The position numbers and the translations under genes were made by a program. A stretch of DNA of 64,000 bases from an uncultured Spirochaetota bacterium (GTDB taxonomy: Bacteria > Spirochaetota > Brevinematia > Brevinematales > JAOACQ01), in assembly GCA_963783575.1 (NCBI GenBank), contig CAWAOD010000015.1:1-64000 (forward strand), given 5' to 3'. This document shows positions 12,978 through 48,116 of this stretch, piece by piece; the first letter of the stretch is position 1; each line of letters starts with the position of its first letter. Under the pieces are notes generated by a model that saw only the letters and a program-made list of their open reading frames with translations, searched no databases and was not told the origin of the DNA.

Positions 12978-12980
12978 GCA

Positions 12981-23508: not shown

Positions 23509-23531
23509 ATAAACCTCCGAATTAATAAAAT

Positions 23532-23558: not shown

Positions 23559-23573
23559 CAGGGATTGTTAAAA

Positions 23574-24446: not shown

Positions 24447-24456
24447 AATTCCTCCG

Positions 24457-25472: not shown

Positions 25473-25643
25473 TTAGCTAACTTTTTTATGCTGTGGTTTT
25501 AAATCGGCATATTTCCAGCCTTCCTTCCTATGCCTCTTTTCGCTTTCCCTTAACATTTCAAAGTATTTATGCAGGTCATTTCCGCATTCTTCCTGCATTT
25601 TGCGTCCTGCGTTCCTCATTTCTTCTACAATTGGGTCTATCAT
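25473..25643 (-). CDS. Unannotated 56-aa partner (probable antitoxin) of the PIN toxin
   Basis: Hand translation MIDPIVEEMRNAGRKMQEECGNDLHKYFEMLRESEKRHRKEGWKYADLKPQHKKVS; overlaps the PIN stop codon (ATGA). Confidence 0.7.
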   Translation of the reverse strand: MIDPIVEEMRNAGRKMQEECGNDLHKYFEMLRESEKRHRKEGWKYADLKPQHKKVS

Positions 25644-27178: not shown

Positions 27179-28455
27179 GCTTTTGCCTCTCGTGGATGAA
27201 ACTTGAGAAGCGTCAATCTGAGATGTTCCGGCGATAGCTTTGTATATCTTTCCGTTGTCGCCAGCTTTTCATGGCCTAACAGGTCGGAAACCTGTTTGAT
27301 TCCGGCTCCATTCTCTAATAAATGCGAGCCATAGGAATGCCGGAAGCAGTGACAGGTAATTTTTTTCTTTATTCCGGCTTTTGTACATGCTTTCGATAAG
27401 TACCGGTTTACGGTTTCATTGCAGGGTATTTTACCTTCATAAGCGGAGGGAAAGGCACGAGTGCCTTCTAAAAAGCCCCGGCAGACAAGCGGACGAATAT
27501 TATCAATAAAGAGTTTCAAATATTGAGTTCCAACATCGCCAAGCTGGACAATACGCTCTTTGTTCGTCTTGGTCTCAAATATTGTCGCTTCCTGATCATC
27601 AAAGTTAATGTCCTCAATCTTCAATGCCAGCAACTCGCCGATACGCACGCCGGAAGAATATAAAACGACCTGCAAGGTCTTAAGCATAAATTCAAGCGGG
27701 TTTTCAGCCTTCACATTGAATAATTTAACAACTTCTTTCCTTGAAAGGATATTTCTTGAAACCTTGTCTTCAGCCCTGACGCTTCCCATCTGTCCGGAGA
27801 ATCCGCCGCAAAGCCCTTTCTTCGATAGAAAAACAAGGAAGGGTTTAACAAGGTTGGTTTTCTGCCGTAAGGTAGACGGAGCGTAAAGGCGATTTCCCTT
27901 ACCGTCCGTCTGATCGGCAAGGTATTTAACGTAATCCTTTACGTCATCCCGGCGGAGATCGGAAAAGATGTTTACATTCCGTTCAAAGACAAGATATTTT
28001 AAAAAGTTCCGGGCATGCTCCGCGAGCCTGCCGGTTGTGGAAGCCGGGTATCCTTCATTCTTCCGCTTTTCAACGTATTCAAGGCAAACGGAACGCAGTT
28101 CCTCCGGAAGACCGGCGTAAAGGTCAAGGCTGGCCTTGCCCCAACCGGTACCGGGCGGCAGAAGATCGTTACTCATCAGAAAACATTTAGCGACCTGGCC
28201 ATAAGTGCGGATTGTGTCATTGCTATACCCAACATTGGTGTTGGGTAGGGATTTAGCTTGAAGATAGCTGTTAAAGTTTTCAAGATCGGCTTTTGTAAGG
28301 CTTTTCAAACCTTCCGGTTCGGCAATAGTCAGCTTTTCCCGGAGATAAGCCATAAACGAAAGCAGGGCGTTCTTTTTAACGATTAAGCCTTGACGTTTGA
28401 AGTGTCGGACTTCGTAGTATGAAAGGAAATCTTTGATTAAGTTTTCTATAGTCAT
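27175..28455 (-). CDS. Tyrosine recombinase with extended N-terminus (XerC-like), copy 1
   Basis: Same motifs as 7448..8707. Confidence 0.93.
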   Translation of the reverse strand: MTIENLIKDFLSYYEVRHFKRQGLIVKKNALLSFMAYLREKLTIAEPEGLKSLTKADLENFNSYLQAKSLPNTNVGYSNDTIRTYGQVAKCFLMSNDLLPPGTGWGKASLDLYAGLPEELRSVCLEYVEKRKNEGYPASTTGRLAEHARNFLKYLVFERNVNIFSDLRRDDVKDYVKYLADQTDGKGNRLYAPSTLRQKTNLVKPFLVFLSKKGLCGGFSGQMGSVRAEDKVSRNILSRKEVVKLFNVKAENPLEFMLKTLQVVLYSSGVRIGELLALKIEDINFDDQEATIFETKTNKERIVQLGDVGTQYLKLFIDNIRPLVCRGFLEGTRAFPSAYEGKIPCNETVNRYLSKACTKAGIKKKITCHCFRHSYGSHLLENGAGIKQVSDLLGHEKLATTERYTKLSPEHLRLTLLKFHPREAKA

Positions 28456-28484: not shown

Positions 28485-28627
28485 TGACCCAGTTTAGTAA
28501 ATCCCTTGTTAATAAAGGGTTCTCTACTCGAAATCTGGGTCAGACCCAGTTTTACCCAGTTGACCCAGTTTACTTTAATCTATTGAAATATATGAAAATA
28601 TATTACTATTACCATGTTGACCCAGTT
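28485..28627. repeat. GACCCAGTT iteron-like repeats, candidate origin (copy 1)
   Basis: About five copies of (G/T)ACCCAGTT, an inverted CTGGGTC and an AT-rich tract. Confidence 0.55.
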
Positions 28628-31406
28628 AGCTTTCTAATTCCTTATCCTTACTGCTTTTTTCACTTTTTACCATGGGAATGTCCGGATTTTCTATCGGACG
28701 GCCGTCTTTCAGCCGGTAAAATCCTTTCGACCTTTCCCTGCCGCCCCTCACAAGCTCGATATATTCCAGATCGACAAGTTCCCGCAGGTTCCGCTTTATC
28801 CAGCAATGCTCGAATCCTGTCTTTTCCCTGATGTCCCTCTGCGTAAACCGGATTTCATGGACTTTTAACCCGTTCTTTTCCGATATCTCCCTTGCCATAT
28901 CAAGCAGGGCGTGATGCAGTTCAGCCGCGCTTTTCGATATTTCCAGCAAAGATGATGACATTGCAGCGTTTTTCATAATATTACAGGCTATTTCAATGTC
29001 CTTATCATCGCATTCTATGTATTCCAGTCCTTCAGAGGTTTTTATCTCTTTCTGGTACTGCCGCAGGAAGCATACGCAGGCGATCAGGTCCATAAACCTG
29101 TCGTTATCCCTGCGCGTCCGCATAAAATTGTCCGGGAAATCAAGCTTTCCAGCTTCAGGATTCACGATGACAAGTTTCCTGAGCATCCGCTGCGCCGCAT
29201 GGTGCTTTTTAATGACAGGCGGGATCTGTTCCGACTTCTCCATATACCTTTCAAGCGAATATTTCCGCCTCTGCGCCTCGTGGATTCTACGGGTCTGTTC
29301 CCGGCTCTCGTCCGTATTGACAACAAAACACCGTGAGGCATTTTCAGGATTGATGTCATGCCTTGTCGAACTCATCACGCTGGCCACAATGGTCGGTTTC
29401 CGGATATGTACGGTATCCATCTTCCCAGTTTTCTCATCCTTAACCGTTACAAGCCTTGAGAGTTCATGGCCTGAAAGCATTTCCCTGATTGAATGCTCGA
29501 TTTCGTCAGAGTGAACGGCTTCGCCAAGTATAAGAAACTTGTGCATAAGGTCTTTGATATAATTTAAAGCCTGATCTGAAAGAGAGGTAACGGCGATGAC
29601 ATCCTCCGGCGGTATAAGCTTCCTTACCGTATCGACAAGCATGGACTTTCCGGAAGCGGATTCCGAAAGAATCAAAACCGATATCGGGTCGTCAAGTATG
29701 CGGGAACTGGCGCAAAGATAAAGAAGCTGTTTGTTCAAGTCCTCGCCGACATAGCCTAATGTTTCCATATCCCTGACAATCTCCTGAAACAGATCGGGAT
29801 TTTTCAGGAATCGAAGCCCCGCTTCCCGTTCTTCTTCCGTAAGCCTTGGCTTTTCCTCCGACTTCCTTGCTTCAAGGGCTTTTCTGTCCCGTTCCGATTC
29901 AAAATAGTCAACTATATCGGTAAGATCGTTCTCAATCCGCTTTGGCTCCAGACCGAAAGCGCGCGAAAGCGACCCGGCGAATGAAGCCCTTGACCTGGCC
30001 AGGTACAAATCCAGATTGTCAAAGTACCGGTTTCCATCATATTCAGCCTTTATGTTCACTTTTATACTTGTAACAAAAGCTTCTTTCAGACCGGCAACTT
30101 TGTAAACCACCGGCGCGCCTTCTGAATTGCCGAAGGTAAAGGCTGTGAAATACTCATCTTTTGACACCTTGAACAAAGCTTCGGTTCCGTTTTCTTCAAT
30201 CTCGAATATCGCCGCTTGCTCAATAAGAACAGTCAAATCCTCTTTTTTGAGCGTGCCGGCCGTAAGCATCTGATTCCAGTCTTTAGTGGCCCCCGAGTAT
30301 ACCGCTCCCTGCTTTGCAGCACTATCGAGGGGCCACGGAGCGACAATCTTAACCCGAAAGCCTTCGGAAATAAGCTTTTCTTTCAATTTATCGCTGGCCA
30401 GACTCCCGGCTTCATCCGCGTCCAGAGCCAGAACTATAGTTTTAACCCGGTCGGCTTTCAAAGTTTGTAAATGTTCTTCGGTAAAGCCATTCGTTCCATA
30501 AATAGCCTGGACATTCTCAAAACCTATTTCAATTAAAGAAAGAGCGTCAATAATGCTTTCGGTCAGAATGATTTCATTATAAACCTTTGATACTTTGCGA
30601 TTGAATACGCCTTTATGGGAACCTTTCAAATATCGATGCTTAAAGCTGGAATTATAATCAATATCACGACCGTAAAAACCTACAGTCTGGCCGCTATCAT
30701 CAAAAATGGGAAAAACAAGGCAGTTTAAGAAATGTTCAGAGCCTTTGTCATTGAATATTCCCGCTTCGGTTAATTCTTTCCTCTGGCTTTCACCAATGAC
30801 AAGGTTTAAGCCGCCATCCGCAAAACCGATCTGAAAGCGTTCATAATTTGAGGTGTTCGTCAAGCCCCGTTTCTTGAGATAATCAAGAGCTTCCGGATGG
30901 TCAAAAAGTCTTTTGTGGTAATAGTTCTTTACTGTATTAAGGTTGTGAATGACCGGTTGGTGAGCCTGTCGAACCACGGTCTCTGTGGACGTTTGTTTTT
31001 CTTCGGGTTTGACTTCCATCTTTCGAACCGTTAAAGGAAGCTCTTTTACAGGGTTTCCCGACCATTCTTTTAAGAATTTTAATGCTTCTTTGAACCCGAA
31101 CCCTTTCACCTTCTCCACAAGTGTAAAAGCGTCTCCGTCCTCTCCGCATCCGAAACAGTTGTATAAGCCTTTTTCACGGCTCACCGAAAGGCTGGGCGTC
31201 TTGCTGTCTTTATGAAACGGGCAAAGCCCCATATAATTTTTACCGACTTTTGAAAGTTTCACATTAAAAGATTCAAACAACTCAACAATATCAATATTCT
31301 TCTTGATGTCGTCCTTTTCAAATTCTTCAAGGAACCCGGTGACTTTCAGGGTTTTCTGGCCTTGTAGCTTGTCATTCTTTGTATTCAAAGGATTTTTCAT
31401 AAGCAT
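28626..31406 (-). CDS. DNA primase: CHC2, Toprim and P-loop domain (copy 1)
   Basis: CPFH/CFGC, LTESIIDALS, ALDADEAG, SESASGKS. Confidence 0.9.
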   Translation of the reverse strand: MLMKNPLNTKNDKLQGQKTLKVTGFLEEFEKDDIKKNIDIVELFESFNVKLSKVGKNYMGLCPFHKDSKTPSLSVSREKGLYNCFGCGEDGDAFTLVEKVKGFGFKEALKFLKEWSGNPVKELPLTVRKMEVKPEEKQTSTETVVRQAHQPVIHNLNTVKNYYHKRLFDHPEALDYLKKRGLTNTSNYERFQIGFADGGLNLVIGESQRKELTEAGIFNDKGSEHFLNCLVFPIFDDSGQTVGFYGRDIDYNSSFKHRYLKGSHKGVFNRKVSKVYNEIILTESIIDALSLIEIGFENVQAIYGTNGFTEEHLQTLKADRVKTIVLALDADEAGSLASDKLKEKLISEGFRVKIVAPWPLDSAAKQGAVYSGATKDWNQMLTAGTLKKEDLTVLIEQAAIFEIEENGTEALFKVSKDEYFTAFTFGNSEGAPVVYKVAGLKEAFVTSIKVNIKAEYDGNRYFDNLDLYLARSRASFAGSLSRAFGLEPKRIENDLTDIVDYFESERDRKALEARKSEEKPRLTEEEREAGLRFLKNPDLFQEIVRDMETLGYVGEDLNKQLLYLCASSRILDDPISVLILSESASGKSMLVDTVRKLIPPEDVIAVTSLSDQALNYIKDLMHKFLILGEAVHSDEIEHSIREMLSGHELSRLVTVKDEKTGKMDTVHIRKPTIVASVMSSTRHDINPENASRCFVVNTDESREQTRRIHEAQRRKYSLERYMEKSEQIPPVIKKHHAAQRMLRKLVIVNPEAGKLDFPDNFMRTRRDNDRFMDLIACVCFLRQYQKEIKTSEGLEYIECDDKDIEIACNIMKNAAMSSSLLEISKSAAELHHALLDMAREISEKNGLKVHEIRFTQRDIREKTGFEHCWIKRNLRELVDLEYIELVRGGRERSKGFYRLKDGRPIENPDIPMVKSEKSSKDKELES

Positions 31407-31415: not shown

Positions 31416-32180
31416 CTAAACCAGATTCAAACGGTTTAAGAGTTCTTCGCCTATGGCCTTTACTTCTTCGGCGGCTTTTGACGGCCTTCCGTCTATTCTT
31501 GGCCTCGATATAACGCCGGTTTTTAAGGATATCGCTTCTTCTATGCGAATCGACTTTGATAAAGCGGTATTAAATACCTTTTCCCCAAAAGCAGTGCGGA
31601 TTTCTTCCACGATCTGCCTGGTAATCACCGGGTTTGAATCAAAGGCGTTTATGATAACCCCGAGGAGCTGCAAGCCCGGATTAAAATTCTTTCGAACTTT
31701 CGCCACCGTAGCCATGAGGTCATTAGTTCCCTGCATTGAATATAGACTTGGGTTCATCGGAATAATAAGCCAGTCGGAAACCGTTAAAGCGTTGCCGGTA
31801 AGAATACTTAAAGACGGCGGGCTGTCGATTAAAATGAAGTCGTAGGCTTGAAAGCCTTCACCAGAAAGCAGGTCTTTCAATTTTGTGAAAGCATCCAGTT
31901 CACCAATAAGTGATTTTTCAAGGCTGGCCAGCTTGACATCGCCTGAGAGAAGCCATAAGTTTTCTTTTACCTGTTCCGGCTCGAAGTCGGTACCGGTCAA
32001 AGCTTCATATAGGCCAAAGCCAGGAATATCGACAAGGGATTTTGAAAGGTTGCCCTGCGGATCGGCGTCAATAACCAGCGTTTTGTGCCCCATTGCCGCC
32101 AGCCAGATCGAAAGGTTGAAGGTTAAAGTTGTTTTACCAACGCCGCCCTTTTGGTTGGATAATACGATTGTTTTTGACAT
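31416..32180 (-). CDS. parA: ParA/Soj family ATPase (copy 1)
   Basis: NQKGGVGKTT, IDADPQGN, IDSPPSL. Confidence 0.92.
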   Translation of the reverse strand: MSKTIVLSNQKGGVGKTTLTFNLSIWLAAMGHKTLVIDADPQGNLSKSLVDIPGFGLYEALTGTDFEPEQVKENLWLLSGDVKLASLEKSLIGELDAFTKLKDLLSGEGFQAYDFILIDSPPSLSILTGNALTVSDWLIIPMNPSLYSMQGTNDLMATVAKVRKNFNPGLQLLGVIINAFDSNPVITRQIVEEIRTAFGEKVFNTALSKSIRIEEAISLKTGVISRPRIDGRPSKAAEEVKAIGEELLNRLNLV

Positions 32181-32190
32181 AGCCAGCCCC

Positions 32191-32466
32191 CTAATTGGAT
32201 TCGGGGGCTTTGAGACGCATTTCTTTCTTCACATTTCCCAACAATGCGTTTAAATGAACGTAAGCCCGGCGGAAATCCAGAAGATTAACCGTAGCCTGGC
32301 CGTTGAAGTATTCAATCTGCGCCTGAGTTAGACCTTCGCCTGTGAAGGTAAATTTTCCGGCTGGCTTTTTGGCTTCTCTGGCAAGTTCGACTTTTTCAAC
32401 CGAATAGCCGAGGCAGATATAATACCCGGCCTCGTAATAATCCGAAGTGATTAAGGTTTGCAACAT
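32191..32466 (-). CDS. Small conserved protein (DUF5659-like), copy 1
   Basis: Homology to the other copies; GGAGG RBS. Confidence 0.7.
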   Translation of the reverse strand: MLQTLITSDYYEAGYYICLGYSVEKVELAREAKKPAGKFTFTGEGLTQAQIEYFNGQATVNLLDFRRAYVHLNALLGNVKKEMRLKAPESN

Positions 32467-32508: not shown

Positions 32509-32737
32509 TTGATTAAAGCTTCAGCTTATGCTATAATAACTTAGGTAAGTTTCGAGGAGTTTTCCTCACTTATGGCTCTGCTTTCAACTTGTCTAGGGCG
32601 GAAAGCAGGGCTTTTCTTTATCTCTAAAGATTTTAAAAACAGGCTTTTTAAGCTTGTTTTTTTAAGCAAAATACATTCATATATACACTTATTATGTTTG
32701 TTACATTAATTATATATTATGGGTAAATTTTTGTCAA
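32509..32737. promoter_or_regulatory. Convergent promoters and putative antisense RNA (copy 1)
   Basis: Plus TTGATT-17-TATAAT at 32509-32537; minus TTGACA-17-TATAAT at 32709-32737; hairpin GGCTCTGCTTTC...GAAAGCAGGGCT. Confidence 0.6.
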
Positions 32738-33447
32738 GCACAATTTTAAAAAGAAGAAAAAGAAATACTTACTTGATTGGTAAAAACTTTAAAGAACTTA
32801 GAAAAAATGAAGGATTTACACTTGAAGTCTTGTCCAATAAGACCAAAATTCATATTGAACCATTAAAGCAATATGAAAGTAATCTATACTCACCAAACCT
32901 AAATAATCTTAATAAGCTCTCTAATTTCTATGGTGTTTCTATCGATTTTCTTATCCTATGGGACAAAACTAATTACATCAGAAGTACCAGGTTAATTGAA
33001 CTGTCGAAAATTATTGACAAACTCGACCAGGTGAAACGGTTTCAAGTTGAATCCACAGCCATGACCCTTATAGGAGATAAGATTTCCAACGTTTTCGTTA
33101 AAGAAGATTCTTTTGATTTGACCAATGATATACATTTAAACCTGAAACAGCTTCGGGAGAGCAGTAAAGTTTCACAAAATAATATTGCTGATTATCTAAA
33201 CATTTCTCAAGGCTTGGTAGCAAACTATGAACGAATAACTATCCCTCCACTGGATAATTTAATCAAGCTTGCAGAGTTCTTCAGTGTGTCCATTCATTCT
33301 TTGGTTACAGGAGAAAATCTGACTTTTCAGTTAGCTAACAATGGATTGAAAGATTCCGTCTTGAAAGCAGACCAGTTGCTTAGTATCAAAGATAAAAGTT
33401 TTCTCATTCTTTTGATGGATAAAATTATCATGGAAACAAAAACCTGA
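32719..33447 (+). CDS. XRE-family repressor with two HTH domains (true start probably near 32773)
   Basis: Two HTH repeats; related to 12981..13652. Confidence 0.85.
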   Translation: MGKFLSSTILKRRKRNTYLIGKNFKELRKNEGFTLEVLSNKTKIHIEPLKQYESNLYSPNLNNLNKLSNFYGVSIDFLILWDKTNYIRSTRLIELSKIIDKLDQVKRFQVESTAMTLIGDKISNVFVKEDSFDLTNDIHLNLKQLRESSKVSQNNIADYLNISQGLVANYERITIPPLDNLIKLAEFFSVSIHSLVTGENLTFQLANNGLKDSVLKADQLLSIKDKSFLILLMDKIIMETKT

Positions 33448-35974: not shown

Positions 35975-36844
35975 TCATTTCTCTATGCTATATCTGTATA
36001 CATCCTTCCTTGTCATTCCAAATACCACATAGGAACTGTCCGACTTCCAGTTAAAAAAATACGATGCCAGAGAAGCATTGTTTGTCAATGTCCTTAAAAC
36101 CTTCTGCTTTTGAAGGTCTATGAAATATAAGAGATTTTGTTTATCTTGGCAGATCACTGTCCTTTCATCAGGCGAAATCGTGAAATAGTCCATAAACACG
36201 GTCACATCTACAGGCAATTTCACTTTCTCAAACTTTTTCTGACTGATGGAATAGCGGTAAATTTTCGATTCTTCCGGACCGTCCAGAAAATTCTGATTAT
36301 TCAACAAGTAAATTAAGTCCGGATTCTTTACTGCTATAGGTAGAAAATACCATTCTTTTGAACTATATAGCTGTTCATTGCTTCCCGTGGTAATATCAAA
36401 TTGATATAGCTTATGGACTTCTTTATCCCCTTTACCTTCCATTGCATCATAATATATTCTTTTTGAATCATAAGACCAGCAATAATAATTATGTTTTGTG
36501 GCTATAACGGAAATTATTTGATAATTGCTACTATTAATAATTTCAAGGCGTTTATTGCTATATTTTGTAAGATATAAACCATCTGGACTCATTTCATTAT
36601 ACCTATTGCTATCATTTTCAAATACAACTACATTTGTTATATAATAACCAGCATTATGATAAATCACATCATCTTTTGTTAATAATTGTTTAATAAGTAA
36701 GCTATCATTTTTACTGTCAATAATTAGCCCCCATAATTCACCTTCATCAAATTTGTAGATTCTTTCAAGTTTGTCTAATCCAAATAAATATGAAAAATTA
36801 AAAATGCTCATAACCAAAATGATGATATAAATTTTTCTTTTCAT
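35975..36844 (-). CDS. Cognate immunity protein of the Rhs toxin (secreted, beta-propeller-like)
   Basis: Immediately downstream of rhs; signal peptide; paralogue at 23574..24446. Confidence 0.75.
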   Translation of the reverse strand: MKRKIYIIILVMSIFNFSYLFGLDKLERIYKFDEGELWGLIIDSKNDSLLIKQLLTKDDVIYHNAGYYITNVVVFENDSNRYNEMSPDGLYLTKYSNKRLEIINSSNYQIISVIATKHNYYCWSYDSKRIYYDAMEGKGDKEVHKLYQFDITTGSNEQLYSSKEWYFLPIAVKNPDLIYLLNNQNFLDGPEESKIYRYSISQKKFEKVKLPVDVTVFMDYFTISPDERTVICQDKQNLLYFIDLQKQKVLRTLTNNASLASYFFNWKSDSSYVVFGMTRKDVYRYSIEK

Positions 36845-36854: not shown

Positions 36855-39800
36855 TTATTTAGAAAAATAATAAGTTAAGTCCGGTATTACCGAAGTTCTA
36901 AATCCGTAGTTTAATGTACCGTTAGGAGTTAAATTATTTAGTATATTGTCTCTCCCTTGCTGAGCTATTGCCGGTGCATAATAATCTTCTTCTTGGTAAG
37001 TAACATAAACACCTTTTCCTGGAGCTAATAAAGCCATATGATTATCATTTGCTACATAGACCAGTTGTCCATGATTTGCCATTTCCTGAACATCATATCC
37101 TTGGTTTGCATCCATAGTTCCATATGAATTATCTGTAAAATACTTTGTCGCATACGGTACACCCCAATGACCTACGGTTTCCAAATCTGAATTTCCGGTA
37201 TATAGCTTGGTTACATAAGATGCGTAACGATCGCAATAAGTCTGGGTTTTTGTTTCAATTGATGGAAAGATTCCAACCCAGACTAATTTTGAAGTAGTGG
37301 TAGGATTGAAAGCCGGGTTATCATACGCAATTCTTTCTGTGAAGTAAAGTCTTTCCGCATCAGTCATGTTATGATCGTCAGCAAAATCTTTAATACTATC
37401 ATAAGTCAAGCTATTAAAAGGTATTTTGCCATTTTTGTATTGATTCTTAAACTCTTGAAATGCATCATTTACTTTATTAAGACTTTCCTGACCATGCCAA
37501 GAAGTATCCCTATAATTTGTTGGATTATCTGTATAATTCGGGTTTATCGGAGCATTATAATCATTTGCGTAATTTACTGAACCTGTAATTGGATTTATAT
37601 TAGCTCCATAATCATTCGCATAATTGCCGGTATGCAAAGATGTTGCTTCTATACTTGGAGTATTCCCCGCTACTGAACTGGGGGGAGAAATGGGGGTTTG
37701 ATTATTAAATTCCGCTGCTACTTCCGGTGTTGCCGGTACAGGATTGGATAAATTATATTCCATAGCATCCATAAGGTTCTTATAATACTCCAACTCTCGT
37801 TCCAGATTAACATCATCTCCTAGTTTGTTCATAATAATTTTAGCCGGGTCAAAATAAAAATTGCTGTTCAATGAACCGACCCGCTGTCCGTCAAGATACC
37901 CAGAGGTTGCACTGGCCTGCAATCCCGCGTAATCGGTAAATCCATACCCTATATTAGCGTTTTCGGTTCTGCCGCGGTAGTTTCCATTTTTGTCGTAATA
38001 CCAGTCCATGCCGGCACCGATATCAAACCCCTGGTTATACCCGGTCTGCTGGTTATAGCCGTAGCTTAATCCAAAACCGTAATTCATTCCCTCGTATTCT
38101 CCATACTCTCCATAATTCCACTGAGCGTGCAATCCGATATTGGCTCCGTTTGACGTTATCCCTGCGTTTGTCCCGATATATTCACTCTGAGATTTCCACA
38201 TTCTGTCATATTCATCGCCGTTCAGGCTGCGTTCCATTGTTCCGCCGAAACTTAAACCTGCTCCTACCTGTAGATATTTAGGGTCTCCTATTCCTATCCC
38301 GGCATTGACATTCCAGTTGAAAGTTTCCGTACGGTATGTATAAGAATGCTTAAAATCAACTCCGCCGCCGAAATAAACAGGAGCTCCGATAGGAGCAAGG
38401 TTCACTTCTAAAGACGAGCCTTCTTCTATATAATATCCTTCATTCTTAGACTTCCCGTATCCATATTTTACAAACCCTAAGTCTATACCGATGAATTCTT
38501 CATAATTAGGATTAACCTGTTCATTTACATAGTTATAACAATCTAGAGAAACTCCTTGATAGCTTGAATCCTTTGCTTCGAACATCGCTCCCACAGCATT
38601 TGACATCACATCATCGCCGAGAGCTGTGGATGATACCTGTCCCATTGATGCGCCCATGAAAAGGCTGCTTATTATATCTTCGCCGTAAGGGTCCCAGAAA
38701 GTCATTGGATTGTTAAGCCCATAAACATACCAGTTCAACCCCGCCGGCCCATATCGTTTATCCGGGTCTTGAATGGGGTCCTGGGTGATAAACCGGCCTG
38801 TGGAAGGGTCAAGGAATCTTGCCCTTGCATAATACAATTTGGATTCACTGTCAAAATAATGCCCGGTGTAACTTATCCCTTCTTTCACTGAGGAGGAGGA
38901 GGAGTTCGTCTCCCCCTCTCCAGACTTGGATAGGGGGCCGGGGTTTGAGGCTATTTGTTCCCCGAAAGCTGTATAGTCGTATGTCTGATAAGAAAATGAA
39001 TGCGTGTTAATAGTGATAGGCGAGTCATAGAGTTCGCCTCTGACTGATCCCTGGGCATCTTTCAGGTAGACAGACGTCTTAACCGAAATCTCCGCCTCAT
39101 AGCTGTTGATCATTATGTTATTCAAATAGAATGTCGAATCATCAAAGAGAATATTCTGCCCGTCATATACAAACCTTATTGCGGGTTGATCAATGCTTCC
39201 TGCCGCGTCCGATGTTTCGTTCTTGGATATCCGCAGGTTATTGACATCGTAAACATTCTTTGTTATTGTAGTATTCCCGTTTTCTAAAAGGTTATACTCC
39301 GTCATCAAATCCCTGGAGTCATACTTGAACCTCTCCGTCTTCCCGGAGCCGTCCTTCTTAACCAGCCTCCCCGCCCGGTCGTATGTATACGAAACACTCC
39401 CCTTAGTGGATTGTTCGAGCATAAGCCTGTTATCGTTGTCATAGGTATAATGGGTAATGTTATTGCAAGCCGAAGGCGTAGCAATCTGATTGGTCGGTGT
39501 GGAATAAAAGCTGGTTGTCTTAACCAATCTGTTCCCGCATGCATCGTAAGAAAAAACCTCGCTGTTGCTCAGACCGTAATTCGCAGAAACCAGCCTGTAT
39601 GTCTTATCATATTGGAATGTGGAGACACACAATTGTGCGCCTGCCTCACTTACCGTCTCCTTAGTCCTATTGCCTACCTTATCGTAGGTGTAGCCATAGC
39701 TCGATAAAAACTGAACCTGTGCTGAGCTGGTATACTGAGCCTGTCGAAGTGCTGACGAAGCATTTGTGGTATTTGATATTGAAGTAAGCCTATATATATT

Positions 39801-42800
39801 ATCATATCCATAATTGACTGTCAAGCCTGTTGAATACTGTTTGTTTGTTATCCTCCCCATAGAACTGTAGGAATAGCTAATTTGAAGGTTGGTTGTGTTT
39901 GTGGATACGGCTGTTTCAAGACTTATCTGGTTCAATCCATCATACTTATAAACTACCGTTTTCCCTCCGGTCCCCGAGTGATTTTCCGCGCCAGCGGAAA
40001 ATTGTATCGAGGGGATCGTCACCATCCTGGTTCTATTCCCGTTCCCGTCATATTCATACGCCAGCGTCTCCCCGTTCTTCTCGTCATACCTGTTTGTCAG
40101 ATTCCCCGCGCTGTCATATTTATACCTGTACGCGCTGAAATTGTCGCCGGCCCATGTCAGTCTCCCCAGCCCGTCATACTGAAAGTGCTTTACATTATTA
40201 TCCGAATATGTCTTTGAAACCGGCTGGTTATTTCTGTTATAACTAGTGCTGATCGATCCCTCGCCGTTCTTTTCCAGAATAATGTTTCCGTTATTGTCAT
40301 ACTGGTATTCCGTGGTAAACCCTAAAGCCGTGGTCTCCTTAACCTTGTTTCCGCGTATATCATATTCCAGCGTTGTCCTGTTCCCCTTCGCATCAATCGC
40401 CGCAGTCATGTTCCCGAAGGTGTCATAATTATACGATGTCGTATTGTTAAGGGCGTCTTTCACCGCGATTGTCTGCTTCCCGTACCGATAGGTCGTTGTT
40501 TGGTTCGATTCCGCATCGGTAAAAACTTCAACCTCGCACTTTAAACCGCTCCCCGAGTGATTTTGCGTCAGCAAAATTGTATCGAGGGGAGCAATGCTGT
40601 ATTGGAACGATGCCCTGTTAGTCATCGCGTCCGTCGACCTTACCATTCTTCCTGCCCAGTCGAATTCCCTTGCAAGTTGATTGTTCTCCTTATCAACGGT
40701 CGTAACCGCGTTGCCGAATGAGTCGTAGATATTAGAATTGGTCCCACCGTAGGGATCAATAGATGCGGTTAGCCTGCCCAGTGAATCATATCTGAAATAG
40801 TTTGTAAAACCGTTTTTATCGGTTGCGGTCAGAACCTTCCCCATTAAATTATAAATATAATTTTCTGTATTATGATTTGCATCGGTAATTTGTATTTTAT
40901 TCCCGAATCCGTCATAGGTAATTGAGGAAGATATTGCCGCCTGATAATTCATATCGTTTTGAGAGGTTGTCACTATGTATGATCCATCCGCCGCATAAGT
41001 ATATGAGATATTAACTAAATTACCCTCCCTGTCGATCTGGCGGACGGGCCTGTTCAGATCATCGTAATAAGTATAAGCCGTATTTCCGTTATAATCTATT
41101 TCTGATGTTTTATTCCCGTAAACATCGTATCCGAAATATTTTTCGATATTATTCACATTTCTGTTGAAAAGAATCTGCCTGATAATATTACCACTGTTAT
41201 CGTATATATTGGTAGAATTAATATACTTTGTTGATCCGTCATTTCTTGATTCAAAAGTGATCCTTCCCGCAAAATCATAAGTATTGCTTATATTCAGTGC
41301 CCCGAAAGGCGTTTCCTCCGTCCTTCCGGTTTCTCTTCCGTAATAATCGTATAAATAAGATGTTGTATACCCGAATCTGTCAGTTTCCGAAATTTTCCTG
41401 CCCCAGGTATCATAAGCCGAAGACTCTCTCGAACTGTCCGGATAAATCGTATTTGTAATATTTCCCCAACAATCATACATATTGGATGTAGCGTACTGAA
41501 CCGCTGCCAATTGCCCATTGCTGAGCGTGCTCCCGCTCTCGCTTTTCCCGGTAAGGTTCCCCATCGCGTCATAAACATAGTTGTTAGTCAATGCCAACCC
41601 CGCCCCGCCATTGAGAGCCGAAGGCGCGGCAATCTCATTCGTTTTTTCTCCCAGCATGTCATACCGGTAAACAACCGTTCCCCCAAGTTCATTAGTCGCC
41701 GACACCACCCTTCCCATTTGATCGTAAACCCAATTCCTGCCGCTGACGGTGCCATTATAAATTATGCACTCGGCTGTTTTATTCCCATAGATATCAAAAT
41801 ATGTCAGGTTGGATGTATGCGATAAATTATTGATTTTATTGGTAACATTCCCCCTGAAATCATACTCGTATTTTTCGTCCCGTAAAGAATTGCCGGTAAT
41901 GATCCTCATGAGGTTCCCGTTATTATAGTATTGATATCCTGTAATCCTACCACCCTCGTTCTTCTGCAAAACCCTGCCTGCGTTATCGTAGGAAAATGTT
42001 GTCGTAAGCCCCGAAGGATCTATCTTTTGCTGCAGCATTCCGCCGCTATTGTATGAATTTGTTGTCTCACCGGAAATATCCGGGTCCGGGGTAAAATACC
42101 TCTTTTCATCGGTGATTTTTCCCGATTTGTTATAAGAATTATTGATGACCTTTACAGGATTTCCAGCGTTGAGGTTTTTCCATACCTCAACAGTATTCCC
42201 CCGAAAGTCCCTGACTTCCTGCGTCCACTCGGCCTGTCCGGCCCCATTCCCATTCACAGTTTTCCATGTCGTAATTTGTGTAAAATTTTCACTACTATAG
42301 GTTATTATTGAATAATTATAATTTACTGCCCTGCTGCTTCCAATCCCAGCCGACTCCGAAGCGTTCGTTACCCTTCCCAGCGCGTCATATTTAAATGAAT
42401 TCGTTATTCCCTTGAAATTCCAGGTAACCGCGGGCTTCCCGTTATAATAAGCCCCGCTGTCATCCGTATACTTATAAAACGTTTCCCTGCACTTTGTTGT
42501 GTTTGTAATGAAATATTTATTGGTCAGAAGCCCGCCCTGCGAATATAAATTTGTTTCAACCATGCCATTCGGATATATAACCGAGGACAGGTAACCCTCC
42601 GCAGTGTAAGAATAATTATAAACCGTTAACCCGTTCGTCACCAAAGGAGCCTGCGCTGAGCCTGCCGAAGTGACGAAGGGCCCCGCTGCTTTCCAGATCA
42701 TCCTTCCAAGATTATCATACCCGAATATGGTAGCCCCATTGTCCGGGTTGTTTACCAGGTTTGTTTCCCCAAAAGCATCAACATTGAATGTCGTAATAAA

Positions 42801-45800
42801 GTCATGCCCGCTGTCATTCCCGCTCCTGTGTATTTCCTGCAAAACACCATTATTATAGTAAAAAGCAGTCAGGTTCCCGCCGGGCGCATTTATATTTGTG
42901 ACCTGTCCAAGAGCGTTATAACCGTACGCGGTAACTCCGCTTAAAGGATTTGTCTCCCTGGCAACCCGGTTTTTTAAACTGTATTCATAACTGTATGTTT
43001 CATTCTCAGGTAAAACCTTGCGAGCGATATTACCAAACGCGTCATAATTATATGCCGTCGTACCGTTGTCGGGATTAATTTCCTGTATGATTTTTCCCGA
43101 GCCGTCATAAACATAATTATATTTATTCCCGTCAAAATCTGTCATATTTGTCATCAAACCGTTTTTATCGTAAGCAGTAGTTTTTACCTGCATAAGCGGA
43201 TTCGTTTCCGAAGTTACTTTCCCTTCAGCCGAATACGCGTATAAATTTGTGCCGCCGTCCGGCTGTATTTCCTCTTCCGGAAGACCGGCCGTATTGAATA
43301 TTGTCCCGGATATTATACCTCTGCTATGATAATAATTATATCCTGTATTATTTAATATTGTCGGGTCTGTAATTACGGTCTTAATGACCCTGTCCATCTG
43401 GTCGTAATAATACATTTCAACTCTTGATCCCCATGATTTTGTCTTCACCGGAACATTATTATAAGTCAAAGTATAGCCGTAGCTTATCGATGTATTGTCC
43501 GGCTGCTCCTCGTTTGTGATTCTTCCGCATTCATCATATTGATATGTCCAGCTTCTGGATATACCGGTATTTGTATCGATTATTGTTTTTGTTTCAAGCC
43601 CGCCCATTGCGTTGTATGTCAACACTGTTTTCAACCCATTAGGGTCTATCTCTAAAATCTGCCTGCCTTCCGCGTCAAAAGCCTTTAAAGTAATAAAGCT
43701 TCCATTACCGCCCGGTGCTATTAAACCCGGGTTGCCAAGTGCGTCATAATATACAAGGTTTGTTGTTTGATTTGCCCCGTCATCGTTAATCTCAGAAATT
43801 GGTTTATTCAAAAGGTTGTATTCGACATTTTTTGTCCTGGACCCCTGCCTGACAACCATAGGGTTGCCGAAAATATCGTATTCATAACTGGCGCTTCTCC
43901 CCGCCGGATCAGTTTCGCCGGAAACAAAACCCATTGAATTGTATGTTTTTATCCAGTTGTTAGTTTCAAAATCCTTCATATTTGTGATGTGTCCCGCAAG
44001 GTCATAGCTGTATGTTTTATAAGCAGGACTTCCGCCGGGTATTCTGTACCTCGCGCTTTCCCTGTAAAGCCTGTTTCCATATTTATATTCCCAATCCTGT
44101 TTGGTCCCATCCGGGTAAATTTCATTTATCTTATTTCCAAGGTTATCGTAATTATAGCTATGGCTATAAATAACCATGCCGTTCGAAGCCGGGTTGAATA
44201 CCGAATATATAAGGTTTGTCACATTATTTCTGAAATCGCTGTAATTGGTCGAACGATTGGTATACCGGTCTATTTTTTCCATACCGTGATTTGTGAAATA
44301 AGTGTTTGAAGAAAATAATGTCGATGCTGTAATATTTCCGCTTCCATACCCGACCGACAATGAAGTGTTCCGGCCGAGTCCGTCATATGTATAGACTTTT
44401 ACATACGATTCATTGCTTAGAATTGCCGTTTCACTTGTCATCCTGCCCATAAGATCATATACATAACTTACGGATTTACCGCTGTTCGTGTCGGTTTGAT
44501 TTGTTAACAGTCCGATACCGTTGTAAGCATAGCTTATATCCGCAACATTGCTGGAAATGATAACAGCCGGACTGTTAAACCCCCTGCCTGTCATCTTCTG
44601 GTTTGTCAGGTTGCCTGCCACATCATAAGAATAACTGTAAGCATAACTGTGATTTTCCTGATCCAGGTCTTTTTCTGTCTGCCTATCATTAACGTCATAC
44701 TTATAAACTATCTTCTTTTTCCCGTCCTTGTCATAGCTTTCCTGTGTTTTATTCCCGTTAGTATCATACCAGTAATTGACTTCATTATTGTTCGGGAAAC
44801 TCACTTTTGAAAGCCTTCCGCAATAATCGTAATAAAACCTTGTCGTATTGCCGTTAGGATCAGTTACAGCGGTCTTTTCCCCCCAGGCGTCGTACGCCGC
44901 TCTGTTTGTCGAGCATCCCTGGATGCCCTGGCTTATTACATTACCCCTAGCGTCGTATTGATAAAAATTTGTAACCAGATCCGCTCGGTTCTCTGTCAGG
45001 ACTTTTCCGTAAATATCGTTTTGGTATAAATAAACCCCGTTATCCGGATTGATGATCTTAGCTAAGTTATGATCTTTATCACAAACATAAGTGGTTTGAC
45101 AACCGTACATATCGGTACTTGTTTTTGTATAACCTCCGCCTTCTTGGTAGTTAAATATAATAGTCGCCAGGTTATAAAGGAGCTTACCGCCCGATCTGTA
45201 GAAACCCTGGCTTGTCAATTCCCCGTTTGTATCGTAGCTCATATGGAATTCGGTTTTATCGGGCTGGACGATTTTTGTCGGCCTGCCGAGATATTTGGCT
45301 GTTGTATCGGAGTATTCATATTTCCATCGCAAACCGGGCACAGTTTTATTTGTTACGTTTCCGAACTCGTCATAAATATAACTGTATGCGTTTGTAAGTT
45401 CATTCGTAAAATATGTCATGTTCCCTTTTTCATCATAAGAAATACTTACTTCGGATAAATTTGGATATCGAATATATGTAACCCTCCTGTCATCATAATT
45501 TGTGAGGGTATTATCATATCTAAATTTAAAGCCATTACCGTTCAGATTTGTGAAAAATGTATTGCCGGGGGTATAGTCGAATGTTCCTACCCAATAAGGC
45601 GTATGAACCGACACAGCCCTATACCGGCTCTCAATGTTAGTGACATTGAATTCATTCGTGTTTGTATTTGTATAATCAAAGTAAGTATAAGATGAATTTC
45701 TGTATACATTACCATCGAATTCGCTGCTGGAATTTAAAAGAGCAATCCAGCTGAACATCCTCCCCGCGTTGTAATCCATTATTTGTAAGTCTATTTCCTT

Positions 45801-48116
45801 TAAGCTGTTCTGCATATCCTGGATCTGCTGATTCAGGTATTCCACCTGAAGGTTGTAATAATCTTCAGAATAATTATACGTCTTTGAATATTGATAATTT
45901 GCTGACTGTAAAATAGTTAGCCAGTTTATTATACTATTTGTCATTTGCTGGTATTCGGCAAGAGTGTTTATTTGATTTGTTTGATTATTAATAAGATTGG
46001 AATTATATTGATCCCAGGATAGTATACCTTTATCATATTCGAATTTTAAATAATACTGCCTTACTTGATTGTATATGGAAAGAGCATAGGGGTAGCCTGC
46101 AGGAGTATTATTTGTCGCCAAAAAACCATAAACCGCGTTTGAGATATCGCTTAAATTTAATTTTAAATTCGTTGATTGCCCTGAGAGTTCGCTTTTGTAT
46201 TTATTAATATTTGAAATATTTATATTTATATTAGATATACCTTTTAACAGTTCATTTTTATTGCTTATCATCGTATTAGTCATAGCGACCAGGTTTGATG
46301 AATTTGGGTCGCAGGCAAGAACATTGCTGTAATTAAATGTGTATTTAAGAGAGCTGCCGTCAATTGTAAGGTTCAGGCGTTCCAGATTCCGGTTTTCACC
46401 GGTAAATGTAAGGTCAGCCCTATTCGATTTATCTATTGCAATGCTATTGATCAGGTTTCTCTCCGAATCACTTTCATTCTGCTCTTCATTCCTCTGAAAA
46501 TCCACTTCATCCACCTGGGTGCCGCCGGGGGAAAATGTTTTGACGGTTATAAGTTTCTGGAATGAGTTATAATCATAGGTTTTGTAAGCCCCGAAACGGT
46601 TGTAATTTGTCTGAAGCGCATATCCCGCATAAATATCAGGCGTACCCGGGGTGCTTCTTCTGAAAGAATGTATCTTTCCGTCCGCTGTATAGTAGCTGAC
46701 GCTCCACCCAAAGGTAGTATTGTCCGAAAGCCATTTACGGATATCCGAAATAAAATCGTTTGTATTGATAAGCAATGTATTCCTGTTTATTGAATTTGTC
46801 AGGAAAGCTGTATTTACCAATGATGCGGCGGCGTCCCCGAACAGCCCTTTGGTTATATTGGTTCCATTGTTTGTTTCAAAAATGTTTGTTATATAACCTT
46901 CCTGTTTAAAACCATATGTAACATTTGTATAAGGTCCGCCTTGATTTGTAAGAATACTGGTTGTTGATTCCCATACTTCATTTGGACTATAATTTGTAAC
47001 AGTATGCTTTGCTAAATCCGGGCAGATGGTATATCCGTAAATATTGTTAGTAGAACTTGCAATATTGGTAATCACTTCATTTACAGAATTTTCCCCGCTG
47101 TTCAGAAATCCTCCGAATTTCAGAATATCCCCCGCGGAGGTTACAACTACTATCACGCTGTCCTGTGTTCCGAACGCCCCGAAAATCCTGATATCACTGA
47201 AATATCCGCCGTCCGTCGTATCGCCCTTCCTGATAAACTGGTTGCTTGAATTCGCGATCATTTTGTAATAATCATACATTCTGGGAGGACCCCCGAATAA
47301 ATGCATAAATGCCGCCATAGTGGCCGCTGAATCAGCTTCGCTTTGCCCGATATACTGGAACTTCTGCGAAACCCCGCTTCCGTCCTGAATGATCACCTCG
47401 TTCTTCTCAAAACTGTACCAGAAGGAATAGTTTTCAGTTAAAAACCATCCAGGCCCCATACCAACATTGCCTGAATATTGTGAACCGTACCTCGCGGAAA
47501 GCTGTATCGGTATCAGGTGGTCATTCCCCACAGGAGTCCGGTAGATCAGAATATTTTTAGACAATTCGCCTGTTACCGGATCGACAAAATCCCCATAAAA
47601 CCCTTTTTCTATCCTGTGCAGTTCGTCCTGGCAGGAATTCCCATAATACTTCGCCGGGTCGCCGAGCTTAAGTTTTATTCCTTCCTGCGATTCCTTCTGA
47701 AAATTCGCAGGATTGGGTACTTCATTGTCCAGAATCCCTTCAATAGCCGTAGGATCTGCATCCTGGCCGGCGCTGAATGCGTAATACCTCTGCAGATGGT
47801 ATTTTTTATAATACATATCCTGGAATGTATTAAGCGCCTTTTCCGTCTCATTATTCCAGAAACCGCTTTCATCTATAGGATTATAATTTGTCAGATTAAA
47901 TGAAAGGACCTTATTCAGTTTTTTCTGAATCCCTTTCAAGCTCTCACTGTATAAATAAGGATTTTTATCATCGTTTTTCTGAACAATATCAATTTTATTC
48001 CGCGTTACGACAAGGCAGAGATTGCTTCCCGCCCATATAAGCGCCAATAATGTAAAAAATAAAAACAAGGTTATTACAACTTTCCTCATCATCTCTGATT
48101 CCTCCGGCAGCCTCAT
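36855..48116 (-). CDS. rhs: Rhs/YD-repeat polymorphic toxin with signal peptide, peptidoglycan-binding-like and DUF6531-like N-terminal domains, and a putative amidase tip
   Basis: Extensive YD repeats; core end YTGHYFDSESKLYYARARFLDPSTGRFITQDP...NPMTFWDPYG; DFVDPVTGEL...MGPGW; tip has YCDRYA and NHMALL. Confidence 0.93.
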   Translation of the reverse strand: MRLPEESEMMRKVVITLFLFFTLLALIWAGSNLCLVVTRNKIDIVQKNDDKNPYLYSESLKGIQKKLNKVLSFNLTNYNPIDESGFWNNETEKALNTFQDMYYKKYHLQRYYAFSAGQDADPTAIEGILDNEVPNPANFQKESQEGIKLKLGDPAKYYGNSCQDELHRIEKGFYGDFVDPVTGELSKNILIYRTPVGNDHLIPIQLSARYGSQYSGNVGMGPGWFLTENYSFWYSFEKNEVIIQDGSGVSQKFQYIGQSEADSAATMAAFMHLFGGPPRMYDYYKMIANSSNQFIRKGDTTDGGYFSDIRIFGAFGTQDSVIVVVTSAGDILKFGGFLNSGENSVNEVITNIASSTNNIYGYTICPDLAKHTVTNYSPNEVWESTTSILTNQGGPYTNVTYGFKQEGYITNIFETNNGTNITKGLFGDAAASLVNTAFLTNSINRNTLLINTNDFISDIRKWLSDNTTFGWSVSYYTADGKIHSFRRSTPGTPDIYAGYALQTNYNRFGAYKTYDYNSFQKLITVKTFSPGGTQVDEVDFQRNEEQNESDSERNLINSIAIDKSNRADLTFTGENRNLERLNLTIDGSSLKYTFNYSNVLACDPNSSNLVAMTNTMISNKNELLKGISNININISNINKYKSELSGQSTNLKLNLSDISNAVYGFLATNNTPAGYPYALSIYNQVRQYYLKFEYDKGILSWDQYNSNLINNQTNQINTLAEYQQMTNSIINWLTILQSANYQYSKTYNYSEDYYNLQVEYLNQQIQDMQNSLKEIDLQIMDYNAGRMFSWIALLNSSSEFDGNVYRNSSYTYFDYTNTNTNEFNVTNIESRYRAVSVHTPYWVGTFDYTPGNTFFTNLNGNGFKFRYDNTLTNYDDRRVTYIRYPNLSEVSISYDEKGNMTYFTNELTNAYSYIYDEFGNVTNKTVPGLRWKYEYSDTTAKYLGRPTKIVQPDKTEFHMSYDTNGELTSQGFYRSGGKLLYNLATIIFNYQEGGGYTKTSTDMYGCQTTYVCDKDHNLAKIINPDNGVYLYQNDIYGKVLTENRADLVTNFYQYDARGNVISQGIQGCSTNRAAYDAWGEKTAVTDPNGNTTRFYYDYCGRLSKVSFPNNNEVNYWYDTNGNKTQESYDKDGKKKIVYKYDVNDRQTEKDLDQENHSYAYSYSYDVAGNLTNQKMTGRGFNSPAVIISSNVADISYAYNGIGLLTNQTDTNSGKSVSYVYDLMGRMTSETAILSNESYVKVYTYDGLGRNTSLSVGYGSGNITASTLFSSNTYFTNHGMEKIDRYTNRSTNYSDFRNNVTNLIYSVFNPASNGMVIYSHSYNYDNLGNKINEIYPDGTKQDWEYKYGNRLYRESARYRIPGGSPAYKTYSYDLAGHITNMKDFETNNWIKTYNSMGFVSGETDPAGRSASYEYDIFGNPMVVRQGSRTKNVEYNLLNKPISEINDDGANQTTNLVYYDALGNPGLIAPGGNGSFITLKAFDAEGRQILEIDPNGLKTVLTYNAMGGLETKTIIDTNTGISRSWTYQYDECGRITNEEQPDNTSISYGYTLTYNNVPVKTKSWGSRVEMYYYDQMDRVIKTVITDPTILNNTGYNYYHSRGIISGTIFNTAGLPEEEIQPDGGTNLYAYSAEGKVTSETNPLMQVKTTAYDKNGLMTNMTDFDGNKYNYVYDGSGKIIQEINPDNGTTAYNYDAFGNIARKVLPENETYSYEYSLKNRVARETNPLSGVTAYGYNALGQVTNINAPGGNLTAFYYNNGVLQEIHRSGNDSGHDFITTFNVDAFGETNLVNNPDNGATIFGYDNLGRMIWKAAGPFVTSAGSAQAPLVTNGLTVYNYSYTAEGYLSSVIYPNGMVETNLYSQGGLLTNKYFITNTTKCRETFYKYTDDSGAYYNGKPAVTWNFKGITNSFKYDALGRVTNASESAGIGSSRAVNYNYSIITYSSENFTQITTWKTVNGNGAGQAEWTQEVRDFRGNTVEVWKNLNAGNPVKVINNSYNKSGKITDEKRYFTPDPDISGETTNSYNSGGMLQQKIDPSGLTTTFSYDNAGRVLQKNEGGRITGYQYYNNGNLMRIITGNSLRDEKYEYDFRGNVTNKINNLSHTSNLTYFDIYGNKTAECIIYNGTVSGRNWVYDQMGRVVSATNELGGTVVYRYDMLGEKTNEIAAPSALNGGAGLALTNNYVYDAMGNLTGKSESGSTLSNGQLAAVQYATSNMYDCWGNITNTIYPDSSRESSAYDTWGRKISETDRFGYTTSYLYDYYGRETGRTEETPFGALNISNTYDFAGRITFESRNDGSTKYINSTNIYDNSGNIIRQILFNRNVNNIEKYFGYDVYGNKTSEIDYNGNTAYTYYDDLNRPVRQIDREGNLVNISYTYAADGSYIVTTSQNDMNYQAAISSSITYDGFGNKIQITDANHNTENYIYNLMGKVLTATDKNGFTNYFRYDSLGRLTASIDPYGGTNSNIYDSFGNAVTTVDKENNQLAREFDWAGRMVRSTDAMTNRASFQYSIAPLDTILLTQNHSGSGLKCEVEVFTDAESNQTTTYRYGKQTIAVKDALNNTTSYNYDTFGNMTAAIDAKGNRTTLEYDIRGNKVKETTALGFTTEYQYDNNGNIILEKNGEGSISTSYNRNNQPVSKTYSDNNVKHFQYDGLGRLTWAGDNFSAYRYKYDSAGNLTNRYDEKNGETLAYEYDGNGNRTRMVTIPSIQFSAGAENHSGTGGKTVVYKYDGLNQISLETAVSTNTTNLQISYSYSSMGRITNKQYSTGLTVNYGYDNIYRLTSISNTTNASSALRQAQYTSSAQVQFLSSYGYTYDKVGNRTKETVSEAGAQLCVSTFQYDKTYRLVSANYGLSNSEVFSYDACGNRLVKTTSFYSTPTNQIATPSACNNITHYTYDNDNRLMLEQSTKGSVSYTYDRAGRLVKKDGSGKTERFKYDSRDLMTEYNLLENGNTTITKNVYDVNNLRISKNETSDAAGSIDQPAIRFVYDGQNILFDDSTFYLNNIMINSYEAEISVKTSVYLKDAQGSVRGELYDSPITINTHSFSYQTYDYTAFGEQIASNPGPLSKSGEGETNSSSSSVKEGISYTGHYFDSESKLYYARARFLDPSTGRFITQDPIQDPDKRYGPAGLNWYVYGLNNPMTFWDPYGEDIISSLFMGASMGQVSSTALGDDVMSNAVGAMFEAKDSSYQGVSLDCYNYVNEQVNPNYEEFIGIDLGFVKYGYGKSKNEGYYIEEGSSLEVNLAPIGAPVYFGGGVDFKHSYTYRTETFNWNVNAGIGIGDPKYLQVGAGLSFGGTMERSLNGDEYDRMWKSQSEYIGTNAGITSNGANIGLHAQWNYGEYGEYEGMNYGFGLSYGYNQQTGYNQGFDIGAGMDWYYDKNGNYRGRTENANIGYGFTDYAGLQASATSGYLDGQRVGSLNSNFYFDPAKIIMNKLGDDVNLERELEYYKNLMDAMEYNLSNPVPATPEVAAEFNNQTPISPPSSVAGNTPSIEATSLHTGNYANDYGANINPITGSVNYANDYNAPINPNYTDNPTNYRDTSWHGQESLNKVNDAFQEFKNQYKNGKIPFNSLTYDSIKDFADDHNMTDAERLYFTERIAYDNPAFNPTTTSKLVWVGIFPSIETKTQTYCDRYASYVTKLYTGNSDLETVGHWGVPYATKYFTDNSYGTMDANQGYDVQEMANHGQLVYVANDNHMALLAPGKGVYVTYQEEDYYAPAIAQQGRDNILNNLTPNGTLNYGFRTSVIPDLTYYFSK

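Follow-up and report, generated by a model that had tools for sequence, protein, structure and literature searches.

At which base, and by what means, does an Rhs gene give up one C-terminal tip and take on another? The window analysed here, a stretch of 64,000 nucleotides that forms the first 64 kb of contig C15 of a 4.9-Mb genome, raises this question because its single rhs gene is trailed by orphan tips, and the short motifs with which two of these tips begin stand in tandem inside the gene itself. We believe, with a probability of about 0.75, that the CCCCCA in the downstream copy of the motif (copy 2) is the insertion point of two-recombinase elements, each of which would bring an in-frame predicted tip together with a putative immunity gene and displace the old tip, and that the upstream copy (copy 1) came about by a duplication of 12 bp and remains with the gene body. 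With equal confidence we regard the locus as an instance of Rhs tip displacement in which site-specific integrative elements are likely the driving force. The tandem is a minor and secondary feature of the locus.

An rhs gene with a doubled motif

The gene is recognised by its YD/RHS repeats (PF05593, E 2.8e-107, with TIGR01643 also matched) and by an Rhs-associated core at aa 3068-3145 (TIGR03696, 62.4 bits against a cut-off of 32.5), which is the single Rhs core match in the whole source genome. The original prediction had drawn attention to the minus-strand text at 37675-37699, and this text proved to be exactly as given, reading T-P-I-S-P-P-S-S inside the 3753-aa ORF; both of its 10-mers lie in the rhs frame and match the starts of orphan tips, one as PPIS (tip 2) and the other as TPSS (tip 1). 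The distance of about 335 codons to the DPxG motif also holds, with PIS at aa 3475 lying 333 codons past DPYG and the second copy 336-337 codons after its aspartate.

The pattern covering both 10-mers, CCCCCAKTTC, occurs four times in the window, always on the minus strand (5684-5693, 25280-25289, 37675-37684 and 37687-37696). In 100 shuffled windows this pattern, which was picked post hoc, was found 0.43 times on average, three times at most and in no case four times. It is not specific by itself, with 20 occurrences in the 4.9-Mb genome, and near-tandem 10-mers at 12-bp spacing are found three times in rhs and 543 times genome-wide. Since near-tandems and the 10-mer are this common, the significance of the motif comes from its position and not from the words alone. 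The tandem as such is common and notable solely by falling on the junction (Table 1).

Table 1. Features of the rhs locus, with positions counted along the whole window
Feature	Position	Strand	Remarks
rhs gene	36855..48116	-	3753 aa; YD repeats, Rhs-associated core ending in DPYG at aa 3142-3145, then 608 residues
DPYG, classical end of the Rhs core	38682..38693	-	aa 3142
Post-DPxG constant segment	37700..38681	-	two N-terminal helices, about 13 Gly-rich beta strands up to YFDP, then helices; Gly 16%; candidate membrane-crossing domain
Copy 1	37685..37696	-	12-bp in-frame duplication, as we read it, of the junction start, on the constant side; without outer arm
Working junction core CCCCCA in copy 2	37679..37684	-	attL-type, inferred; 29.5 bits
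Tip-side arm (G/T)TTC...GG(A/G)GAAT	37662..37678	-	conserved at tip starts
Current tip, ~276 aa	36855..37684	-	Cys/His/Gln conserved; CHAP-like peptidase predicted
Putative immunity gene	35975..36844	-	10 bp past the rhs stop; a paralogue follows orphan tip 1
Double HTH regulator, element 1	32719..33447	+
Small conserved ORF and ParA ATPase, element 1	31416..32466	-
CHC2 zinc finger/DnaG-Toprim primase, element 1	28626..31406	-	long C-terminal extension
Two tandem tyrosine recombinases, element 1	26159..28455	-	426 and 339 aa; catalytic motifs
PIN-domain TA-type gene, element 1	25640..26134	-
Element 1 end	25290..25470	-	ATG leader in frame with displaced tip, closing in arm GGGTCTACAGGGAGGA
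Far-end junction core 1	25284..25289	-	attR-type, inferred
Orphan tip 1 and its putative immunity gene	23574..25289	-	paralogue of the current tip
Element 2, 19.6 kb	5694..25289	-	cargo, two group II intron RTs, HTH, ParA, primase, two recombinases, DUF4258 gene
Far-end junction core 2	5688..5693	-	attR-type, inferred
Orphan tip 2 and SH3-bearing putative immunity gene	3728..5693	-	tip split over two frames near 5176-5234
Element 3	1..1614	-	small ORF, ParA, start of primase; cut by contig end

Repeated units with two recombinases

Downstream of rhs the window is built of repeated units with the order tip, putative immunity gene, cargo, divergent HTH gene, small ORF, ParA, CHC2/DnaG primase, two tyrosine recombinases and TA-type gene. 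Two units are complete, at 12,395 and 19,596 bp, and the contig stops within the third. The source genome has five recombinase pairs, and the catalytic R, H-x-x-R and H...Y motifs were present in all eight recombinases examined, which represent four of the five pairs. Three more junctions lie on another contig, C5, whose first bases fall within a primase; given that the genome has one Rhs core match, we infer that C5 continues the same array. Two C5 elements (318-6093 and 11925-17700) are 98.6% identical and are followed by different tips, which suggests repeated recent integration of one element.

The best recombinase scores stay below the equivalog cut-offs of the housekeeping enzymes (231.7 against 329.6 for XerD, 220.6 against 335 for XerC) and below that of the integron integrase (114-117 bits against 265 for IntI), and every unit has its own recombinases, unlike an integron. 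A homologue with 50% identity carries the label Brevinematales at its source, a hint of a spirochaete lineage. Conjugation and virion genes, which would point to an ICE or a prophage, are absent among the Pfam matches obtained for ORFs of the window's two complete units, several of the scanned ORFs being without a family. A viral scan with the recombinase alignment returned generic relatives only, with 24-37% identity among 80 viral loci, and the close recombinase family is confined to the source genome and a genome of the same genus (G001) among 43 genomes of the class and 401 of the phylum.

The elements also carry additional genes and repeats. Element 2 has group II intron RT genes at 13737-15566 and 17890-20186, the second of which recurs at C5 21518-23814 with 98% identity, and its cargo at 16097-17872 and 20415-21728 comprises an ATPase-nuclease similar to the restriction enzymes BbrUII/HgiDII (below the cut-off) and a radical SAM/SPASM maturase. 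Repeat families of 50-700 bp occur in both orientations at 2370-3631, 19864-20139, 22527-22745 and 33454-35649; they sit between immunity and HTH genes, flanking the cargo, and are possible cargo-exchange sites or MITEs.

A six-base core at the element ends

Seven far-end junctions were compared, five in the source genome (two in the window and three on C5) and two beside G001 elements. Each opens with an element-side arm resembling GGGTCTACAGGGAGGA, passes through CCCCCA and continues into a tip-side arm that closes with GG(A/G)GAAT, and in all seven the element end meets the tip at the same base and in the same frame. The core recurs at both ends of the elements, at 37679-37684, 25284-25289 and 5688-5693 as well as at the three C5 sites. 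A scan with the core and its flanks, proposed along with the original prediction, found the junction again at every other orphan junction checked (three on C5, two in G001), and CCCCCA is still invariant when an eighth, degraded G001 site is added. A short shared core thus exists as predicted, but the 10 bp given for it were too long, only CCCCCA being invariant; base +6 (G/T) and the bases after it travel with the tip.

A third G001 site, on contig C10 (L188 10103-10125, 10409-11040), has a junction-like core and tip arm with a degraded tip. It lies about 300 bp behind an element-end remnant, at another chromosomal place beside host genes; it lacks an element arm immediately upstream and is not counted among the seven.

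The point of exchange is bounded from both sides. On the left, the match between rhs and orphan tip 1 begins only at the C run of copy 2; on the right, the twin C5 elements match base for base across the 2548 bp that lead to the core, show a different base at +6 and have unrelated tips after +22. From these alignments we infer a crossover in or next to CCCCCA, a slightly longer overlap that tolerates a mismatch being possible.

An extended motif, derived from these same junction sites, occurs six times in 4.9 Mb, all at junctions, with copy 2 of rhs included and copy 1 not. With a matrix of the seven far-end sites, copy 2 ranked sixth in the genome, after the five training sites of the source genome, at 29.5 bits, a score inflated by the presence in the training set of orphan tip 1, the paralogue of the current tip; the next best score was 23.9 bits, and copy 1 reached 4.4 bits. 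Copy 2, the only copy followed by the full tip-side arm, is likely the working junction.

A dyad scan over 182 settings placed its best inverted repeats in the element arm, at a mean match of 0.70 where the median of all settings was 0.29, and in the tip arm, at 0.60; a dyad with a 7-bp spacer centred on the core was absent from the 10 best of the 182 settings. At junction 1 no promoter signal rose above shuffles. No joint expected of an excised circle or an empty site was found in the contigs of three runs, which hold other strains at thin cover (X1 has a relative at a small share, X2 and X3 are almost empty of matches). When metagenomes were scanned with the junction pattern, 59 loci came up; since 0/59 matched any of 11 window proteins, these loci are taken as chance.

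Tips, putative immunity genes and leaders

The ORF after the rhs stop co-varies with the tip and is a putative immunity gene. Most tips are without a Pfam match; one C5 tip matches Peptidase_M23 (E 2e-16), and a G001 paralogue of the current tip matches CHAP below the cut-off (E 0.006). Cys151, His216 and Gln242 are invariant in six of six aligned members, the top Atlas match for the tip (0.90) is a cluster with 16% CHAP, and the genes downstream of tips start, as judged by eye, with hydrophobic stretches. The tips are predicted to be periplasm-acting antibacterial effectors, with M23 and CHAP-like types among them. The structural model of the current tip was unusable (pLDDT 38.6) and gave no fold match, and a PDB sequence search returned no matches. 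The frame split of orphan tip 2 (within 4836-5838) reflects either decay or a sequencing error.

ATG leaders of 48-61 codons, in frame with the displaced tip that follows, are present at four of the seven far-end junctions. At a fifth the ATG stands 8 codons upstream, and the twin C5 elements have none. Lys/Ala-rich leaders lie at 25290-25470 and 5694-5838 of the window, near 33240-33416 of C5 and at L024 8600-8747. Such leaders may keep the displaced immunity genes translated.

The segment behind DPxG and a second swap point

The Gly-rich stretch between DPxG and the junction had been regarded as a constant delivery domain. Constant it is in a close relative (P0001), where 257 of 275 residues are identical to rhs over aa 3151-3425 (93%), followed by 10/25, 16/25 and then at most 8/25 per block; support for a delivery role comes from a low-confidence model. 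Related segments at 18-32% identity are present in P0003, G001 and G011, and among 60 relatives 11 matched the query, several of them, e.g. G017 and G006, only up to DPxG. Judged from these alignments, the segment is constant within the lineage and not across all relatives. The original prediction, by which homologues should lose identity at the P-x-S position, is partly refuted by these alignments: P0001 diverges earlier, after YFDPAK (~aa 3425), and the distant relatives G017 and G006 match no farther than DPxG.

The region of YFDPAK recurs as a boundary: P0001 diverges after it, P0002 begins just before it and the match of P0003 ends nearby. On this comparison there is a second swap point, about 55 codons upstream of the junction (window ~37830-37860, aa ~3420-3430), which is probably homology-driven.

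An AlphaFold model from five sequences starts with two helices, runs on through 13 beta strands as far as YFDP and closes with helices; its mean pLDDT is 44.8, and its top Foldseek matches are outer-membrane beta-barrels (E 7.6e-5, TM 0.30-0.39). This weak resemblance of the model is a lead only, because any long beta-meander would match such barrels. Scans with the Gly-rich segment gave no usable loci in genome contigs or metagenome contigs, and in an Atlas search with it all scores were below 0.9.

A proposed tip exchange by insertion at the core

In the mechanism that we propose, a circular element would join its right end (arm and core) to its left end (core, tip arm and tip), and a crossover within the CCCCCA of rhs would produce the present layout. 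Each insertion would push the old tip behind the element, and repeated insertion would build the stack. The 12-bp duplication would have arisen once, earlier, at the rhs site, and later swaps would have used the downstream copy. The Gly-rich beta segment would help periplasm-acting tips (M23, CHAP-like) to cross the outer membrane of the target, and this predicted aid would explain why the swap point lies behind the segment and not at DPxG. The displaced tips in the repeated units contain no Rhs core fragment, and their homology to rhs begins at the 6-bp core. What weighs against this mechanism is that neither a circle nor an empty site turned up in the contigs of the three runs, that the dyad scan put no 7-bp spacer on the core, that the rhs of G001 has a degenerate junction, and that the tip change of P0001 near YFDPAK shows a second route at work.

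The alternative that survives best, improbable as we hold it to be, is that tip exchange is the work of RecA-type homologous recombination, or of recombination aided by microhomology, as in the model of Jackson et al., with the elements as passengers that integrate beside tips. Such swapping would suit the swap point of P0001 and P0002 at the conserved end of the beta segment, the junction in the G001 rhs, which is degenerate (PISPEEE, third positions changed) though an element follows, and the mosaic nature of the two closest tips, whose likeness falls from 94-98% at the start to about 60-70% farther on. It is difficult to reconcile with the five orphans of the source genome, which are without rhs body sequence and share homology from the core onwards, and with the meeting of element and tip at the same base and frame at 7/7 far-end sites. 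Furthermore, six shared bases are too few for RecA.

Origin of the doubled motif

The original prediction had explained the tandem as a scar of successive insertions through a 10-bp core, with copy 1 coming from tip 2 and copy 2 from tip 1, which we consider even less probable than homologous swapping. Both 10-mers do match the two orphan starts exactly, and a chance tandem on the junction is unlikely (0.11-0.27 per kb, or ~0.3-0.7% for a 25-bp target). However, the match of copy 2 is one of simple paralogy: the current tip has paralogues, over its entire length in the case of orphan 1, in orphan 1 and the C5 tip at 33417, and its identity to both starts at copy 2 (98, 96 and 94 matches per 100 nt to orphan 1; 94, 94 and 89 to the C5 tip), which is why copy 2 equals the start of orphan 1. 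Copy 1 is closer to the start of the C5 tip at 17675 (13 nt) than to that of orphan 2 (10 nt), which speaks against its being a trace of tip 2. Base +6 differs between the twin elements, and a duplicate motif was found at none of the seven far-end junctions, so that normal insertion leaves none.

The tandem has also been kept in a relative, P0002, whose tip is another one. Over some 55 residues, as far as NNQ, P0002 does not differ from rhs; P-PISP-PISL-GGN follows, with both copies of the P-I-S type, and after it an unrelated tip. A contig of X1, counted with P0002 as one lineage, aligns across the tandem with 6 differences in 127 nt (two listed on the body side and four more near its tip-side end) and departs from the window after GAAT. 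The duplicate was therefore already present when at least one of the swaps took place, and it moves together with the body of the gene.

The best reading of copy 1, from its sequence, is that a T-type site was duplicated once, in frame, over 12 bp. For how this would have happened, at an earlier time and at this site, we lean slightly towards an out-of-register crossover over replication slippage; the two routes yield the same product, and the preference comes from the duplicate falling on the junction, whereas the C run favours slippage instead. The weaker form of the scar explanation, one old aberrant crossover, is thereby part of the best explanation.

It is very unlikely that the motif is instead a protein signal for tip release (a P-x-S-x-x-x-N linker or a protease site) with its DNA conservation as a by-product. 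In favour of such a signal, every site is in one frame, the G001 rhs keeps P-I-S-P-E despite altered third positions, and a subtilisin-like gene lies upstream; against it, the residues at the site vary (I/S, T/P/L/V/G, A/G/Q), and in the twin C5 elements the arm and CCCCCA are conserved as DNA without a leader translated into the tip.

Relation to known systems and to other target points

Earlier models, as far as the available portions of these papers go, proposed homologous recombination via a hypothetical circle, with tips defined from DPxG (Jackson et al. 2009, PMC2935791), or noted nearby integrases without a mapped site. The Rhs C-terminal displacement described in the accessible text of PMC2935791 is like the present locus in that an intact rhs is followed by lower-GC displaced tips and a single circle crossover shunts the old tip downstream; here, in contrast, each tip lies in its own recombinase-bearing element, the orphans are coreless, and the 6-bp core junction lies 336-337 codons past DPxG. 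In a classical displacement array the tip comes directly after DPxG and the orphans carry core fragments of variable length, whereas here the 257 of 275 residues identical in P0001 are post-DPxG residues and the array has no core matches.

Integrase/Xer genes near Rhs or immunity arrays, with a suggested role as an acquisition aid, have been noted in Snodgrassella (PMC5727410) and by Zhang et al. 2012 (PMC3482391), and tyrosine-recombinase-type genes by Rhs arrays in Xenorhabdus/Photorhabdus by Martinkus et al. 2026 (as cited in bioRxiv 10.64898/2026.07.13.738213), all according to partial texts. The parts available of PMC5727410 and PMC3482391 give no attachment site, element boundaries or primase-ParA module. 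Islander islands, as the excerpted description has them (PMC4383910), likewise involve a tyrosine-recombinase element that restores its target, a displaced fragment that marks the far end, and tandem arrays, but here the restored part is a different effector domain, there are two recombinases, and the target is a toxin gene.

A RIT element has three tandem recombinases, and each unit here has two. Tn554 is said to have two recombinases. Compared by description, from partial texts, with RIT elements and Tn554, the units here have a primase, ParA and HTH module and an in-frame toxin tip as their left end; what they share with the RIT trio (PMC8138268) is the presence of several simple tyrosine recombinases in tandem on a mobile element.

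Two other genomes appear, from their sequences, to have more distant elements of the same type at other target points. G011 has twin elements that are 97% identical over 6.7 kb, with a primase 38-41% identical to that of the source genome; these elements (L026 16771-17480) abut rhs fragments starting about 326 codons before DPxG, and the two copies are inverted relative to each other, which may partly reflect assembly. In G002 (L032 7647-7900) a recombinase pair precedes an rhs fragment starting about 60 codons before DPxG.

Blocks of a recombinase pair and a CHC2 primase are often annotated beside rhs in other phyla, so that the element type may be common and has possibly already appeared in print; a description of it was not found in the literature searched, which covered few subscription journals. 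We see an even chance that these elements form a widespread, undescribed class of tip-swapping integrative elements, i.e. small primase-bearing replicons whose attachment site is codon-aligned inside rhs. Each integration would rearm the host Rhs with the element's own toxin, the far end would supply a start codon for the displaced tip and immunity gene, and clades would differ in their target points (~326 and 60 codons before and 337 after DPxG). If this is true, Rhs polymorphism would have a dedicated enzymatic mechanism, rebuildable from two genes and a 45-bp site. As this locus also shows, an Rhs may keep a domain past DPxG and become variable only behind it. Recombinase-driven tip swapping becomes directly testable here, since the core is defined and flanked by two arms, two enzymes stand as candidates, and nature provides seven far-end junctions.

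Upstream of rhs lies a cluster (48556-63999), partly common to G001, that encodes discoidin-like, 3412-aa Ig-repeat and subtilisin-like proteins and may serve the display or export of Rhs.
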